Below are positions 43,487 through 49,036 of a DNA stretch of 64,000 nucleotides, in pieces (positions within the stretch are counted from its first letter, which is position 1; each line of letters begins with the position of its first letter). This DNA comes from Promethearchaeia archaeon (GTDB lineage Archaea > Asgardarchaeota > Lokiarchaeia > Sigyniarchaeales > SOKP01): positions 55,153 to 119,152 of the forward strand of contig JAHQWG010000043.1 of NCBI GenBank assembly GCA_029856045.1, read 5' to 3'. Position numbers and translations under genes: made by a program. The notes beneath the pieces are model-generated. The model saw only the letters and a list, made by a program, of their open reading frames with translations, did no database searches and was not told where the DNA came from.

Positions 43487-44983
43487 ATGGTGTTGGAAAA
43501 TTTAAAACCTAAAATTGTATGGGATATTTTTGAAAATATTATTGCTAAAACTCCGAGACCTTCTAAACATGAAGAAAAAATCCGTGAAGTGATAAAAGAT
43601 TTTATATTGGAATCTGGCAAAACAAATAATAATGATTTTCAGATTTATCAAGATGGAGTTGGAAATATCCTAATCAAAAAACCAGCGACATCCGGACAAG
43701 AGTCAATTCCATCAATAATGCTTCAAGCTCACCTCGACATGGTATGTGAAACAGATAAACCTGAAGGATTTGATTTTTTCAATAAAGGAATTCCAGTACG
43801 TATTCAGGAAAATAATGAATGGGTTTACGCAGATGGAACATCTCTAGGAGCTGATAATGGTATTGGCTTAGCATTTGCTTTAGCAATCCTAATTGATAAA
43901 TCGATAGATTCTCATGGACCCATTGAAGTATTATTTACTGTGAATGAAGAAGATGGGTTTGATGGAGCAACTCATCTAGATCCTAAAACTCTTAATATAA
44001 AAAGTAAATTGATGATTAATCTAGATGGAGGACCTGCCGAAGTAGTTGTAATTGGTTCTGTTTGTGGACGAGGGGTGAGATTTTCAAAAAAATTTAATTG
44101 GATTTCCCCTGAAGAAAGTAATGAGCTTCAATTTTTTGAACTTTCATGCCAAGGATTATTAAGTGGGCATTCGGGAGAAGATATTCATTTACCAAGAGCA
44201 AATGCAATTAAAATAGTAGGTAGAATATTATCAATTCTTGCCCAAGAAATGAAAATCTATATCTGTAAATGGCAAGGAGGCACTAAAGGAAATGTCATAC
44301 CTGCTAAATCTATAGCAAAATTTGGTATTGAATCAAAAGATCAAAAGGCATTTGAAGAATTAATTAAAAAAGAAATTGCATCGATTAAGGATTATTATGA
44401 AAAATTTGAGCCTAACCTAAAAATCGAATATAAACAATCTCTTCCAGACAATTATCTTTCAAAAGAAGGTTCACAAATATTATTATCTACCGCTCATTTA
44501 ATCCCTAATGGTGTTCTTAAAAAGTCTCACATTTATGAAGGATTTGTAGAAAGTTCGAACAATTTTGCTATTGTAGATACTGAAAAAAATGACGAAATTA
44601 TTTGGCTTTATCCGCGTAGTATATTAAGAAGTGAATTGGATTCTTTTGTTGTTTCAATGAAACAATTAGGGAAATTAGGGGGTTGGAAAGTGTTTTTAAG
44701 ACCTGTATTACCCGAGTGGTTACCTAATTTAGAATCTAAGTTCTTAAAATATGTTGTTAAGCAATATGAGAATCTTATAAAAAAACCGGTAATAACTAAT
44801 GTCATTCATGGTGGATTAGAGACTGGAATGATTAGCACTAGGATAAGTGGTCTTCAAATGGTTTCTCTAGGTCCAACAATCGAAGGCTTGCATTCGCCGA
44901 GTGAAAGATTAAAAATCTCTGATGTGGGATTAATATATAACCTTTTAAAATTAATTATTAAGGAGCTTAATGGTATAGCTTAA
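43487..44983 (+). CDS. pepD: Aminoacyl-histidine dipeptidase (M20C)
   Basis: PRPSKHEE, QAHLDMV, LGADNGIG, NEEDG, IHGGLETG, HSPSE. Confidence 0.93.
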   Translation: MVLENLKPKIVWDIFENIIAKTPRPSKHEEKIREVIKDFILESGKTNNNDFQIYQDGVGNILIKKPATSGQESIPSIMLQAHLDMVCETDKPEGFDFFNKGIPVRIQENNEWVYADGTSLGADNGIGLAFALAILIDKSIDSHGPIEVLFTVNEEDGFDGATHLDPKTLNIKSKLMINLDGGPAEVVVIGSVCGRGVRFSKKFNWISPEESNELQFFELSCQGLLSGHSGEDIHLPRANAIKIVGRILSILAQEMKIYICKWQGGTKGNVIPAKSIAKFGIESKDQKAFEELIKKEIASIKDYYEKFEPNLKIEYKQSLPDNYLSKEGSQILLSTAHLIPNGVLKKSHIYEGFVESSNNFAIVDTEKNDEIIWLYPRSILRSELDSFVVSMKQLGKLGGWKVFLRPVLPEWLPNLESKFLKYVVKQYENLIKKPVITNVIHGGLETGMISTRISGLQMVSLGPTIEGLHSPSERLKISDVGLIYNLLKLIIKELNGIA

Positions 44984-45009
44984 ATAAAGAAGCTACTTTA
45001 TAATGGACC

Positions 45010-45090
45010 TTATAGATTAGTACTTAAAAATTTCAACCCACTATCACACATCAAACAAACCACTGTTTTTCCCTTTGATTTTACCTTAAC
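45010..45090 (-). pseudogene. C-terminal remnant of a cysteine-synthase-family (PLP) gene
   Basis: Translates VKVKSKGKTVVCLMCDSGLKFLSTNL*, matching the CysK-type GKTxV.I..DSG.(R/K)YLST terminus. Stops lie just upstream. Confidence 0.55.
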
Positions 45091-45261
45091 ATATTTTCAG
45101 CTTTTTTATCTTAATGAAAGGTAAAGATCCAAGTAATTTTTGGTTAAAAACCGAAGATAATGGAAAAGGAAAAATTCTAAATTATCTATCTCCTCTTATT
45201 CTATAAACTACAAACAAATCTAATGTTCCAATTAGGGGCATGCGATAATAGAATTAGTTTT

Positions 45262-45340
45262 TAATGATGACACCACACAGGTGAGAAACTCAATAAGCAC
45301 CCACTTACAAGTGTTTAAGCTTATTTCATAGTCATCATTA
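45262..45340 (-). promoter_or_regulatory. Eukaryote-like SECIS element of selD
   Basis: Minus strand directly after the stop: TAATGATGAC-T-ATGA-AATAAGCTT-AAA-CACTT GT AAGTG-GGT-GCTTATT-GA-GTTTCTCACCTGTGTGGT-GTCATCATTA. This gives a 10-bp helix I, AUGA/GA core, helix II, AAA and an apical mini-stem. Confidence 0.9.
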
Positions 45341-46366
45341 TTATTTTTTTGAAACCTCCTCAAATTCAATATTTTTGGAGAGTCTTACTAATCCTGGCTC
45401 TTTTTTATCAATTAACCCTACAACCCAATTATGTATATTATTACTTGATAGAAGGTTTGAGAATTCCTCAACATTGTCTGCATCAACCGAGAGAAGCATC
45501 CCCCCCGCAGTTTCTGAAGCCTCACATGAATCAAGGCGGTAATTGAAATCCTTGGCAAGTTCTTTTGCATATTTTATAATCGGAACTGTTTCAATTAACG
45601 CGGAAAGATTTGTACCCTCAAGCATTTCTCTAGTATGACCTGCAAGTCCAAAACCAGTTACATCGGTCATTGAATGAATAAATGAAAAATCATCATAGGA
45701 ATGTATTGTTTTTACAACATTTTGATTTGATGTAATCATTAATTCAATAGCATAATCGATTGAACTTTTTAACTCATTAGCCGAATAAAGTTCTAAGATT
45801 TCCGGAGTATTTTTTAATATTCTATAGGCAGCCATTACCGGTTGAAGTCCCGTAGGTTTAGTGATTATTAATTTATCACCTTCTCTTGGACCCTGTTTTC
45901 TGATGAGTTTATCTTTTTCCACAAATCCGGACGCTTCTCCACCAATAAGTGGCCATTCGCAGTAAATTGTATGCCCTCCTAACACTTTTGAGTTAATTTT
46001 TTTCATAAAATTGTTTATTCCATTCATAATTCCTTCAGCAACCTCCATGGGCATCATTGTATCCATTGCTAGGAAAACAAGCATTCCTTGTATCTCAGGT
46101 ACATTCATGGCAAAAATATCGTTTGTTACATTACATGCAGCGATTTCTCCCATAATCTCTGGCTCATCTGCAATAGGAGTAAATATATCTATATTTTGAA
46201 GCAATAATAAATTAGTATTAGGAACAGGAGTAATTGAACAATCTTCAGTAAGACCAGCTAAACCAACATTCTCTAATAACTCCTTCAATTTTTTCGGACC
46301 TAATTTGCATGATCAACCAAAAATTTTAACCTGTTGAGTTAATCGATACTCTTCTCTACTTTTCAA
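45341..46366 (-). CDS. selD: Selenophosphate synthetase, itself a selenoprotein (341 aa, Sec18)
   Basis: TTG 46366 after a GGAGG RBS. YRLTQQVKIFG-U-SCKLGP with TGA at 46313-46315 (UxxK motif). Also DIFTP, NDIFAM, GGHT, TDVTGFGLAGH, ETAGGML. Confidence 0.95.
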
Positions 46367-46444
46367 CTCAACCTCCTTTTATTTTTTAAAATTATAATTA
46401 AAGATACATTAAAAATTTTTAAAAAAAACACTTTCTAAAACAAA

Positions 46445-46678
46445 TTAAGCTTTTTTTATGTAAATAGTAAATTTATACGGATCATTCACTTCTTGAAGAT
46501 CCAAAATGTCATGTCCTTCCTTCTCTAAAAATTCGACTATATTTTCTTTAGCTGGTAAAAAATCTCCAATAAGTTTCAATGTTTTTCCAGATCCCATAGG
46601 TTTTAATTTTTTTTTCGTTAAATATAAGGGCATGGGACATGATTTTCCTTCTACGTTTAATTCCTCATCCGAATCCAA
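46445..46678 (-). CDS. TusA/SirA-family sulfur (selenium) carrier
   Basis: LNVEGKSCPMP (CPxP motif). Confidence 0.92.
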   Translation of the reverse strand: MDSDEELNVEGKSCPMPLYLTKKKLKPMGSGKTLKLIGDFLPAKENIVEFLEKEGHDILDLQEVNDPYKFTIYIKKA

Positions 46679-46696
46679 TTTAATCCCTCCAATAAT

Positions 46697-47044
46697 TTAA
46701 AATGTGATATGATTTTCACTTTCACCCACTGCTTGAACAATCTCATGCATTCCAACAATCTTGGCGCCTTCAACTAAATGTTCTTGCTTAATCCCACGAG
46801 ATTTACAGCAAACTCCGCACACAATTACTTTCAATCCTTCTGAAATCGCACTTTCTAAATATTCTAAATGATTAGGGTATTCATTTGGATTTTGTTCTTT
46901 CAAACCAACATATATTCCATCTTGCATTAAAGTAAGTGTTACATCATTACCATCCAATATTGCAGTTAGTGCAAACCTAAGAGCAGTATATGGTTTTTCC
47001 CTTCCATAGGGTGATTCCATTATCATAACTGAAAATTTTCCCAT
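46697..47044 (-). CDS. DsrE-family sulfurtransferase
   Basis: SPYGRE, LMQDGIY, VCGVCCKSRGI. Confidence 0.92.
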   Translation of the reverse strand: MGKFSVMIMESPYGREKPYTALRFALTAILDGNDVTLTLMQDGIYVGLKEQNPNEYPNHLEYLESAISEGLKVIVCGVCCKSRGIKQEHLVEGAKIVGMHEIVQAVGESENHITF

Positions 47045-47169
47045 AATTTAGAATTCCTTATTTAATTTTTAAATCAAATTAATCAAATTTAATTACATTA
47101 AATTAAAATAAGAGGATTTATTAATTTTACTTTAAATATTTATTAGAAAAATTAATATCTTGATTATAT

Positions 47170-48072
47170 TTAACTTTTATTTTCAAAAATAAAATTCCAA
47201 AATTTTTTTGCAACTTTATTTAATTTATTTCCTTTATTTTTGACAAAATATAATTCTCTTCTTAAAGGAGGTATATTTGAAATGTTTATTATTTTAATTA
47301 GTTTTGCATCTTCTGCTTTTTTGGCACTCATCTCACTAATAATTGATATATTATTTGAATTACTTACTGCAGAAATTATTGATTCATTACTAGTCATTTC
47401 TAGCAAATGATTTAATTTATCATACTTTTCTAAATTTTCCATAGCAAATTGTTTTGTACCAGAACCATCTTCACGGGAAATAAATGGATATTTAATTAAA
47501 TCCTCAAAAAGGACATTTCCTTTTTTAATTCTAACCAAGTCGTGATCATCAGCACAAATAAAGACTAAATTCTCAGTAAAAATTGGGAAATATTCAAATT
47601 TTTCACGGTCCTCCTTTATAAAACTCCCAATTGCAGCAAATTCAACGTGCTTATTTTTTAGATCTATTAAACTCTGCTTACTATTTCTTATCCAAATATT
47701 GATTGTAACATTAGCATACTTATTCTTAAAATCCGCAATAAATTTTGGTAATATATGATTTCCTGGAATAGTTGAAGCAGCAATAGAAAGTGTTCCTATA
47801 AATTCTTTACTGAGATTAAATATTTCTTTTTGACTTTTATCAAATAAGGAAACTATATCCTTTGAATATCTTAATAAAATTTCGCCTTGTTTTGTTAATT
47901 TGAATGTTCTTGTACTCCGATCAATAAGATTGCACTTAAAATAATTTTCTAAATGCTCAATTTGTTGAGACAAAGCGCTTTGAGTTATCGAAATTTTATC
48001 TGCAACTTTTGAAAAACTTTTCTCTTCTGCTAATAAAATAAAGTGGCGTAGAAAATCAATTCTTAAGGTCAA
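47170..48072 (-). CDS. LysR-family regulator (selenium-metabolism-associated type)
   Basis: HTH SFSKVADKISITQSALSQQI, ASTIPGNHILP, SREDGSGT. Adjacent to dsrE-tusA-selD. Confidence 0.92.
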   Translation of the reverse strand: MTLRIDFLRHFILLAEEKSFSKVADKISITQSALSQQIEHLENYFKCNLIDRSTRTFKLTKQGEILLRYSKDIVSLFDKSQKEIFNLSKEFIGTLSIAASTIPGNHILPKFIADFKNKYANVTINIWIRNSKQSLIDLKNKHVEFAAIGSFIKEDREKFEYFPIFTENLVFICADDHDLVRIKKGNVLFEDLIKYPFISREDGSGTKQFAMENLEKYDKLNHLLEMTSNESIISAVSNSNNISIISEMSAKKAEDAKLIKIINISNIPPLRRELYFVKNKGNKLNKVAKKFWNFIFENKS

Positions 48073-48169
48073 ATTATAATCAATTTATTTGTTATACATC
48101 TTATGGTATATTATTCAGATTTATTAACTTTTCTAATAAATAACTGAATAAAAATTAATATTTAGATCC

Positions 48170-49036
48170 TTAATTTTTAATTAATGATCTTAAAATCTTC
48201 AAGTTCTTAACATCATTAGTTGTATCTTTTGAATTTTTTGGGGTTTCTAGAATACCAGGATAATCATTAAAACGCTCATCGTTTAGGAAAAATCCGAATG
48301 GTTTTTTTCCAATTTTTCCTTGCCCAATATGAGTATGCCGGTCAACCCTGGAACCTAACTCGTTCTCAGAATCATTGAGATGAAAAATAAATAAATATTT
48401 TAATCCAATAATGTTATCAAACTCATCCCACATTTTGTTATAACTTTTTTCAGTTAAAAAATCATACCCAGCTGCAAATACGTGGCAAGTATCAAAACAT
48501 ACACCTATTCTATTTTTATTCTTAATTTGATCGATAATAGATTTTAGATGCTCAAATTTATATCCAATATTATTACCTTGCCCTGCCATAGTTTCTAAGC
48601 AAACTATAGATTTATATTCTGAGGTTTTTTTGAATAGGATATTTAAATTATTTGCAATTCTTTTAAGAGCATCCTCTTCAGTCTCACCCTCTTCCTTACC
48701 AGTAGCAGTTCCAGGATGTAATACAATATATTCTAATCCTAATGATTCGGCTCGATTAATCTCTATTTCCATTGAATCAATTGACTTCTGTAGGGTTTCT
48801 GGATTATGAGCTCCCAAATTAATTAAATATGATGTATGGGAAAAAATTGGCCAAATATTTTTTATTTTCTTTCTTTTTTCTTTAAAAGATTTAATATCTT
48901 CTTCGGTTAATGGTTTAGCTGCCCATTGACGATTAGATTTTGTAAATATTTGAATTGATTCGCAATTAATTTCATCTCCACTCTCAATAGCTTTAAATAA
49001 ACCACCCGCTATACTCATATGAGCTCCTAATCTCAT
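48170..49036 (-). CDS. nfo: Endonuclease IV
   Basis: LGAHMSIAGG, HTSYLINL, HPG, LETMAGQG, DTCH, HLNDS, DRH, ILETP. Confidence 0.96.
   Translation of the reverse strand: MRLGAHMSIAGGLFKAIESGDEINCESIQIFTKSNRQWAAKPLTEEDIKSFKEKRKKIKNIWPIFSHTSYLINLGAHNPETLQKSIDSMEIEINRAESLGLEYIVLHPGTATGKEEGETEEDALKRIANNLNILFKKTSEYKSIVCLETMAGQGNNIGYKFEHLKSIIDQIKNKNRIGVCFDTCHVFAAGYDFLTEKSYNKMWDEFDNIIGLKYLFIFHLNDSENELGSRVDRHTHIGQGKIGKKPFGFFLNDERFNDYPGILETPKNSKDTTNDVKNLKILRSLIKN

Follow-up and report, generated by a model that had tools for sequence, protein, structure and literature searches.

The stretch of DNA analysed here, a window of 64,000 nucleotides (nt) that corresponds to positions 55153-119152 of contig C44 in genome G000 (G000:C44:55153-119152), contains a locus for selenium utilisation from an Asgard archaeon of the Loki type (Promethearchaeota). 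The genome is a metagenome-assembled genome (MAG) of 3.34 Mb in 55 contigs, for which G000 is our own label; other G numbers denote related genomes, L numbers individual loci, f numbers families and C numbers contigs. On the minus strand of the window, lysR, a dsrE-like gene, a tusA-like gene and selD follow one another in this order and in the same orientation, separated by spacers of 125 nt (lysR/dsrE), 18 nt (dsrE/tusA) and 78 nt (tusA/selD). They encode a putative regulator of the LysR_Se/HrsM type with 300 residues (48072-47170), a YchN-type DsrE-like protein with 115 residues (47044-46697), a TusA-like protein with 77 residues (46678-46445) and the 341-residue selenoprotein SelD (46366-45341, stop included). 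The UGA codon at 46315-46313 is predicted to specify selenocysteine (Sec) as residue 18 of SelD, and the gene is followed on the same strand by a predicted type II, eukaryote-like Sec insertion sequence (SECIS; 45339-45263). Two copies of a candidate operator/promoter motif flank lysR: copy A (48120-48163, plus strand) occupies the ancestral position at the 5' end of lysR and points away from it, while copy B (47159-47116, minus strand) lies upstream of dsrE. A first-pass annotation of the window had described four co-oriented genes ending in a Sec-encoding selD, with a 3' SECIS about 1 kb from its UGA, and the coordinates, domains, fold and covariation reported below confirm this. SelD with Sec, this type of SECIS, LysR_Se and YedF-like carriers have all been published already; the shared operator and the split YchN-type carrier pair look new.

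The regulator combines the HTH_1 (PF00126) and LysR_substrate (PF03466) domains, and its best NCBIfam match is NF040786 (LysR_Sec_metab), at 233.7 bits compared with 121 bits for the next LysR family. In a phylogenetic tree, the protein falls inside a Loki-type LysR_Se clade (support 100/99), and from its sequence we therefore assign it to the LysR_Se/HrsM subfamily. LysR_Se (= HrsM) was defined, along with YedE and YedF, from genomic context and joint occurrence with SelD (Lin et al. 2015, PMC5322559), and the same paper describes residues of the substrate-binding domain that are specific to the subfamily, a conserved proline among them. HrsM is a selenium-responsive LysR regulator of Methanococcus (PMC11097638, citing Sun and Klein 2004 and Quitzke et al. 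2018), which in M. maripaludis represses frc and vhc, the hydrogenase operons for the cysteine isoforms (PMC11097638). The window protein, for which LysR_Se is the best-matching family by a wide margin, resembles these regulators in its HTH_1 and substrate-binding domains and in being confined to SelD-bearing lineages (with a single-genome exception given below), where it adjoins selenium-related genes. It differs in having dsrE-tusA and selD as neighbours, whereas HrsM acts on the frc and vhc operons, in the candidate operator proposed here, which is new, and in that lysR is co-oriented with its neighbours in this genus rather than divergent. In many genera of the family, two conserved proteins of ~331 and ~466 residues also adjoin lysR (L061:4068-6520 and orthologues); neither has a Pfam or NCBIfam match.

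The DsrE-like protein scores 84.5 bits on PF02635. Its closest solved relative is YchN of E. coli (1jx7; profile E = 1.8e-19 over 115 of 117 residues), a protein for which we know of no function. The CxxC motifs of the two proteins align, and C76 matches the persulfide cysteine Cys78 of TusD and DsrE; full-length similarity and CxxC placement together make the protein a member of the YchN type. Its CGVC motif (C76-G-V-C79) is invariant in orthologues, as are Y13, E16, R23, F24, Q51, P53, R83 and G84. The TusA-like protein, at 64.7 bits on PF01206 (cut-off 28.6), belongs to the TusA/SirA family and carries the motif C14-P-M-P17, the CPxP pattern being invariant across 13 orthologues. A profile search with DsrE (6-row alignment) yielded 80 species loci, and tusA lies directly 3' of dsrE in nearly all of them. 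An orthologue search with the single DsrE-like protein returned named matches from Asgard archaea only, except for one partial bacterial protein; the best 120 matches of the profile search were all Asgard, and a search of the ESM Atlas returned generic DsrE clusters only. A second, distant pair of TusA and DsrE genes is present in the same genome (G000:C51:208046-208600; L002), with tusA first and ~25-30% identity.

Taken together, the two proteins hold the motif pair of YedF, CPMP in the TusA-like and CGVC in the DsrE-like protein, both invariant in orthologues. YedF, whose description goes back to Zhang et al. 2008 (cited by Lin et al. 2015, PMC5322559), likewise combines a TusA-like CPxP domain with a DsrE-like CGxC domain and shows genomic association with selD and LysR_Se. 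In YedF, however, a SirA/TusA-like N-terminal domain is fused to a DsrE-like C-terminal domain, whereas here the parts are split and dsrE comes first; the DsrE part is of the YchN type, and the partner YedE, an importer (PF04143), has no match in this genome. A single YedF protein is ruled out by the split into separate genes, with dsrE ahead of tusA, and by the YedF model TIGR03527, on which the TusA-like protein reaches 32.4 bits (cut-off 110) and the DsrE-like protein has no match. Compared with TusD and DsrE (2d1p, 2hy5) and with YchN, the protein shares the DsrE fold family and places its CxxC as in YchN; it differs from the former in that the partners TusB/TusC (DsrF/DsrH) are not encoded beside the gene, and from YchN in a selenium link that is specific to the archaeal neighbourhood. 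Genes for TusB, TusC, TusE, MnmA or DsrF/DsrH-like proteins were not found beside dsrE-tusA in any locus examined, and membership of the pair in a TusBCD complex was rejected because these partner genes are missing from the neighbourhood; the score on the TusD equivalog model TIGR03012 is 32.2 bits (cut-off 89.25). An identity of DsrE as a SaoD-like protein (bioRxiv 2022.07.06.499078) was also rejected, as NCBIfam gives no match of that kind.

Across the 80 species loci, lysR is divergent from the adjacent dsrE-tusA in 57. Most of these 57 come from Promethearchaeota, some are labelled Helarchaeota, Hermod-, Hod-, Thor- or Odinarchaeota, and one Bathyarchaeia MAG and one entry with a bacterial label are also included; the dsrE-tusA pair extends further still, to MAGs labelled Jord-, Sigyn-, Borr- and Atabeyarchaeia. 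The wider family has two transcription units, lysR<>dsrE-tusA and selD, with selD placed elsewhere in the family between the gene for a ~980-residue HEAT-repeat protein and a small convergent gene (c5). Only the window's own genus (G000, G002, G003 and G004, matching L081-L083) has lysR-dsrE-tusA upstream of selD. In G000, the HEAT-repeat gene (C47:79758-76831) abuts the small gene (C47:76385-76813), so that the ancestral selD slot is empty, and gene order indicates that this genus moved selD out of the slot and inverted lysR. The four-gene cluster as a whole is thus not conserved, being confined to one genus among the loci compared. Its description as a bacterial-style cassette is apt as to resemblance, but not as to origin, the module being old and widespread in Asgard archaea rather than recently bacterial.

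Further neighbours in other genera are a helicase, CdhD, an FGGY kinase, an aconitase and two unknown proteins at lysR<>dsrE-tusA, and the HEAT-repeat protein and MaoC dehydratases at selD; no selenium-related genes were found among them. Such carriers joined selD independently in two other cases. In G012 (contig C47; L175:5932-9140), the HEAT-repeat gene and selD are separated by an inserted cassette with a copy of the operator motif ahead of it; the cassette encodes a split YedE (two Sulf_transp halves), a TusA, a 417-residue DsrE-domain protein, a weakly TusA-like protein of 74 residues and a protein of 119 residues. The Bathyarchaeia MAG (L109:3827-8923) has the order LysR< DsrE> TusA> double-cubane reductase> activase> SelD>, with a regulator that scores 258.9 bits on LysR_Sec_metab, above the cut-off. 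In 7 of the 80 loci, namely L109 and six Loki-type loci (L098, L103, L105, L107, L120 and L121), the gene after tusA encodes a double-cubane-cluster reductase (NF040772, 508 bits), of which the window's genome has no close orthologue. In bacteria, genes for 2-hydroxyglutaryl-CoA-dehydratase-like proteins and their activases adjoin selenium genes (Lin et al. 2015, PMC5322559).

The intergenic regions of the divergent loci revealed a shared 44-nt motif, which is present in 54 of the 57 and lies 55-85 nt before dsrE, with the consensus TTTATCGA-N7-RATAAA-N6-ACGAAAAAATTAATAAAT. Its left half is an ATC-N9-GAT dyad, and its right half resembles an archaeal B recognition element and TATA box (BRE/TATA) pointing at dsrE. 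The spacing of the dyad is what we take to be the classical T-N11-A geometry of LysR boxes. Scanned with a position weight matrix (PWM), sites scoring 17-35 were found just upstream of selD in G024, G017, G014 (both selD copies), G023 (both copies), G013 and G008, the distance to selD being about 90-115 nt in G024, G017, G014, G023 and G013, and likewise before the split-YedE/TusA/DsrE cassette that precedes selD in G012. When five whole genomes were searched with a degenerate pattern, 12 of 13 matches (at most 2 mismatches) fell either in the lysR<>dsrE region or ahead of selD or of the cassette that precedes it; a control with the reversed pattern gave 0-3 matches per strand at up to 3 mismatches. 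Because dsrE-tusA and selD carry a motif found almost nowhere else in five genomes, the simplest reading of these sequences is that they form one small regulon.

In the window's genus the box has the form TATTAAYTTTTCTAATAAATA, in which the dyad has changed symmetrically to ATT-N9-AAT. Copy A has its box, TATTAACTTTTCTAATAAATA, at 48122-48142 (plus strand; PWM 16.7, fourth-best in the genome) and represents the ancestral divergent layout minus dsrE. In copy B, the dyad box TATTAATTTTTCTAATAAATA at 47157-47137 (minus strand; PWM 15.6, seventh-best) is followed by the BRE/TATA-like sequence AAAATTAATAAAT at 47128-47116, ~76 nt before the dsrE ATG, and spacing and layout are the same as in the 54 divergent regions. 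The PWM maximum in the whole of G000 is 20; with hard pseudocounts nothing in this genome exceeded 14 bits, and the scan became informative only after softening. At up to one mismatch, the 3.34-Mb genome has exactly two occurrences of the 21-nt genus box, one on either side of lysR, while random sequence of the same composition yields no match, and both copies are conserved within the genus. A scan for bacterial sigma-70 promoters and intrinsic terminators gave fewer matches than shuffled sequence, these models not being applicable to an archaeon.

We then assessed co-occurrence across 251 genomes of the phylum, evenly drawn and at least 80% complete, with thresholds of E <= 1e-50 for SelD, 1e-40 for LysR_Se and 1e-40 for YchN-type DsrE; the counts are descriptive only, as related genomes are not independent. 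SelD was detected in 57 of 61 genomes of f1, 4/4 of f2, 50/65 of f10, 2/4 of f11, 2/3 of f16, 2/2 of f19 and 6/6 of f21, and in none of the 105 genomes of 20 other families. LysR_Se was found in f1 (54/61), f2 (2/4), f5 (1/1), f11 (4/4), f16 (3/3), f19 (2/2) and f21 (5/6), with none in f10 or in the 19 remaining families, which lack SelD. The figures for YchN-type DsrE are closely similar, with 52/61 in f1, 1/4 in f2, 1/1 in f5, 4/4 in f11, 3/3 in f16, 2/2 in f19 and 5/6 in f21, and only weaker, paralogue-level matches outside these families. LysR_Se and the YchN-type DsrE are therefore restricted to exactly the same seven Asgard families, six of which bear SelD; the exception, f5, is represented by a single genome.

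The terminal gene of the locus encodes a SelD by TIGR00476 (192.1 bits, cut-off 125) and by its AIRS (PF00586) and AIRS_C (PF02769) domains, although it falls slightly short of the cut-off of the archaeal model PRK14105 (278 vs 291). Translation is predicted to start at the TTG at 46366, which is preceded by GGAGG, and ends at a TAA (45343-45341). The single in-frame TGA gives F-G-U-S-C-K at residues 16-21, with the expected Sec and Lys. A TGA lies within the selD match in 39 of 41 relatives searched, and SelD proteins of the same family, which are 59-67% identical to that of the window, all carry it. As the rest of the Sec machinery is also present in the genome, with the genes for tRNA-Sec, SepSecS and EFSec close to one another on contig C1 and a PSTK-like gene on C20, reading of the UGA as Sec is fully plausible. 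Several genera have two close copies of selD (G014:C5:26598-28954, G023:C16:19037-21540 and G017:C51:14316-18599; L173, L179 and L171, respectively); those of G014 and G023 are in tandem, each with an upstream match to the operator motif and its own SECIS-like 3' untranslated region (UTR). Multiple selD genes in Loki- and Thorarchaeia have been noted earlier (ISME J 2024, PMC11227280). In a salt-marsh metatranscriptome, four 151-nt contigs identical to selD all fall within 45421-46144, and there is no such contig for dsrE, tusA or lysR. Since DNA may be present in the RNA library, transcription of selD is at most weakly suggested, and the contigs are silent on the operon.

The predicted SECIS begins directly after the selD TAA, and its AUGA...GA core lies 984 nt from the UGA. 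Helix I (45339-45331/45271-45263) is followed by AUGA (45329-45326), helix II (45325-45319/45298-45292), AAA (45316-45314), an apical mini-helix (45313-45302) and the GA (45291-45290) that completes the kink-turn core. The single-sequence fold has a free energy of -23.6 kcal/mol (z = -2.9), and none of 200 shuffled sequences was as stable. In an alignment of 17 selD 3' UTRs of the family, compensatory changes support 15 of 19 consensus pairs, and AUGA, AAAC and GA are near-invariant; the unpaired UUAAAC and the mini-helix after it, which itself has compensatory changes, are characteristic of a type II SECIS. An additional hairpin, CACC-UGUGU-GGUG (45283-45271), lies within the 3' internal loop that separates the core GA from helix I and is also conserved with compensatory changes in the 17 UTRs. 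An Rfam scan of 44900-48300 (E <= 10) returned no SECIS family and two chance sRNA/snoRNA matches; helix II is shorter in Asgard SECIS than in the eukaryotic SECIS model. From fold and covariation, the element is assigned as a type II eukaryote-like SECIS that is predicted to serve the selD UGA. Type II SECIS of this kind are known as 'SPS lokiSECIS' (Mariotti et al. 2016, PMC4989117; ISME J 2024, PMC11227280), and the window adds a further member to these published Lokiarchaeota/Asgard cases, with which it shares the in-frame UGA at the catalytic position of SelD and, in the 3' UTR, the AUGA_GA core, short main stem and extra apical mini-stem, without essential difference. Because every relative has this SECIS after selD, irrespective of the genes upstream, its joining to the cassette, to which the first-pass annotation drew attention, carries no meaning.

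Gene phylogenies indicate that the components of the locus have different histories. In the DsrE tree, the genus is nested in a Helarchaeota clade, and 66 Loki-type sequences are set apart by a long branch (support 99, length 0.85); its nearest named DsrE relatives (57-77% identity) are almost all labelled Helarchaeota. Similarly, TusA is 53-56% identical to the Helarchaeota type and 31-45% identical to the Loki type (apart from one short match at 55%). Since dsrE and tusA are of the Helarchaeota type, while lysR groups with the Loki-type clade and SelD is 59-67% identical to that of its own family, the locus is a mosaic, in which a native lysR, inverted, and a native selD, relocated, stand with a dsrE-tusA of the type of another lineage.

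Comparison between genomes supports both a selenium linkage and LysR control of the DsrE/TusA pair, as the first-pass annotation had proposed, through the LysR_Se/HrsM affinity of the regulator, its adjacency to the pair in 57 of 80 loci, the shared motif and the co-occurrence by family. The best-supported reading, which we regard as reasonably probable, is that these selenium-linked carriers, under LysR control, serve SelD. In such a circuit, LysR would bind the dyad and, according to selenium status, set the transcription of dsrE-tusA and of its own gene; in this genus, transcription of dsrE-tusA would probably read on into selD. The cysteines of DsrE and TusA would carry reduced selenium, as perselenide or selenotrisulfide, and pass it to SelD, which would make the selenophosphate used in forming Sec-tRNA. 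As a selenoprotein, SelD depends on Sec for its own synthesis, and positive feedback would thereby be built into the circuit; the autoregulation of SelD suggested in the first-pass annotation follows logically for every SelD that contains Sec and is not particular to this cluster.

An archaeal precedent comes from M. maripaludis, which is also a Sec user with HrsM and possesses a selenium-responsive pair of TusA and a DsrE-family protein: upon selenium depletion its TusA/TusD pair is up 4.5-4.6 log2-fold, or 4.5-5.3 log2-fold when YedE is counted with the pair (PMC11097638). The authors of that study, however, read the pair as genes for tRNA thiolation, and sps is not selenium-regulated there (PMC11097638). 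LysR_Se and YedF, for their part, co-occur with SelD (PMC5322559). The papers on the Asgard selenoproteome (PMC4989117, PMC11227280) make no mention of DsrE, TusA, YedF or LysR, and literature searches for TusA with DsrE and selenophosphate, for HrsM with Asgard and for YchN with selenium returned no description of such a regulon in the literature consulted.

Several observations weigh against this reading. The TusA and DsrE folds are bona fide sulfur (persulfide) carriers, and the DsrE-like protein does not match the YedF model. The window's LysR lies 16 bits under the cut-off of NF040786 (233.7 vs 250), and all Loki-type orthologues score 200-233 bits; the cut-off is passed by orthologues from other Asgard families and by the Bathyarchaeia MAG (252-274 bits). 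Family f10 maintains SelD in 50 of 65 genomes without LysR_Se, and in five genomes of f1 SelD is kept while neither lysR nor dsrE was found, which, if these absences are real, would make the module accessory. Three of the five, all from one genus, retain the motif upstream of selD, and the other two have no motif match at their selD-bearing contigs. The main caveat here is that these cases may reflect an assembly gap, since lysR and dsrE are adjacent and a single gap could remove both, or a motif that works without LysR. Furthermore, in the window's genus selD is not immediately preceded by a box; the 78-nt tusA-selD spacer contains a conserved GGAGG as well as eight consecutive T, and given these T selD may have a promoter of its own. 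Since the core promoter forms part of the motif, some of its conservation may also be that of a promoter rather than of an operator. Finally, the sps transcripts of M. maripaludis do not respond to selenium (PMC11097638), and the Methanococcus TusAD was likened to the window pair by description, as orthology could not be shown.

An explanation that we think unlikely is that the pair is linked to selenium without delivering it to SelD, either buffering or detoxifying selenide or Se(0), or signalling to LysR, for example in the form of a selenium-loaded carrier. A redox or detoxification role has been proposed for the CGxC of YedF (PMC5322559), the signal of HrsM is described as unknown, with free selenide ruled out (PMC11097638), and the association of the module with lysR (57 of 80 loci) is closer than that with selD. 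An operator held in common with selD nevertheless fits scavenging and delivery better than detoxification, and the TusA/TusD pair of M. maripaludis is induced by selenium depletion, not excess (PMC11097638).

We hold it to be quite improbable that DsrE and TusA form an ordinary sulfur relay (for tRNA thiolation, molybdopterin or Fe-S), with a LysR that senses sulfur or redox state and a selD made adjacent by accidental rearrangement. Beyond the established role of TusA and DsrE/TusD in carrying persulfide, this explanation can draw on the JGI label of the orthologues, 'tRNA 2-thiouridine synthesizing protein D', on the restriction of the four-gene string to one genus, and on SelD working without the module in f10 and apparently also in the five f1 genomes. 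It does not account well for a regulator closest by far to the selenium-associated LysR subfamily, nor for a motif that, genome-wide in five genomes, is common only to dsrE-tusA and selD. The module occurs only in SelD-carrying Asgard families, the single f5 genome excepted, and similar carriers joined selD independently. TusB/C/E and MnmA are not encoded beside the pair, and the TusD equivalog model gives only 32 bits where 89 are needed. That the 44-nt motif is a strong lineage-specific core promoter, with LysR acting via another site, is very unlikely: although its 3' half is BRE/TATA-like and three genomes without a detectable lysR keep it upstream of selD, its 5' half is a dyad of LysR-type ATC-N9-GAT (T-N11-A) geometry that changed symmetrically to ATT-N9-AAT in this genus, it occurs at only 2-3 places per genome when a general promoter would be expected at many genes, and a copy is kept at the lysR 5' end though it faces no dsrE.

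For the reading in which the carriers serve SelD under LysR control, the resulting parts list is short: a single regulator, an operator motif that recurs at 2-3 places per genome, a pair of small cysteine carriers and SelD. It is conserved across dozens of Asgard species, could explain the unexplained induction of TusAD on selenium starvation and offers testable candidates for archaeal selenium sensing and delivery, so that what is gained is a defined regulon and such candidates rather than a new kind of system. More tentatively, and as a possibility that we would not yet favour, the YchN-type DsrE and TusA may be a dedicated selenium chaperone, and perhaps the signal input, of HrsM/LysR_Se, which together with selD would complete a minimal selenium-homeostasis regulon with a defined operator, shared by Sec-using Asgard archaea and paralleled in the TusAD that Methanococcus induces on selenium starvation. 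If true, this would answer by which route selenium reaches SelD and which targets HrsM-type regulators have beyond hydrogenase isoforms; both selenium delivery to selenophosphate synthetase and archaeal selenium sensing are named as open questions in PMC11097638.

Two minor observations concern the provenance of these sequences. Locus L124 (DATKTW010000038.1), labelled 'Candidatus Nanopelagicaceae bacterium', has a typical Loki-type lysR<>dsrE-tusA arrangement, and its DsrE branches among Promethearchaeota; it probably reflects an error of binning or labelling rather than gene transfer. In addition, DNA runs from salt-marsh and marine sediment, from several studies, contain the whole stretch.

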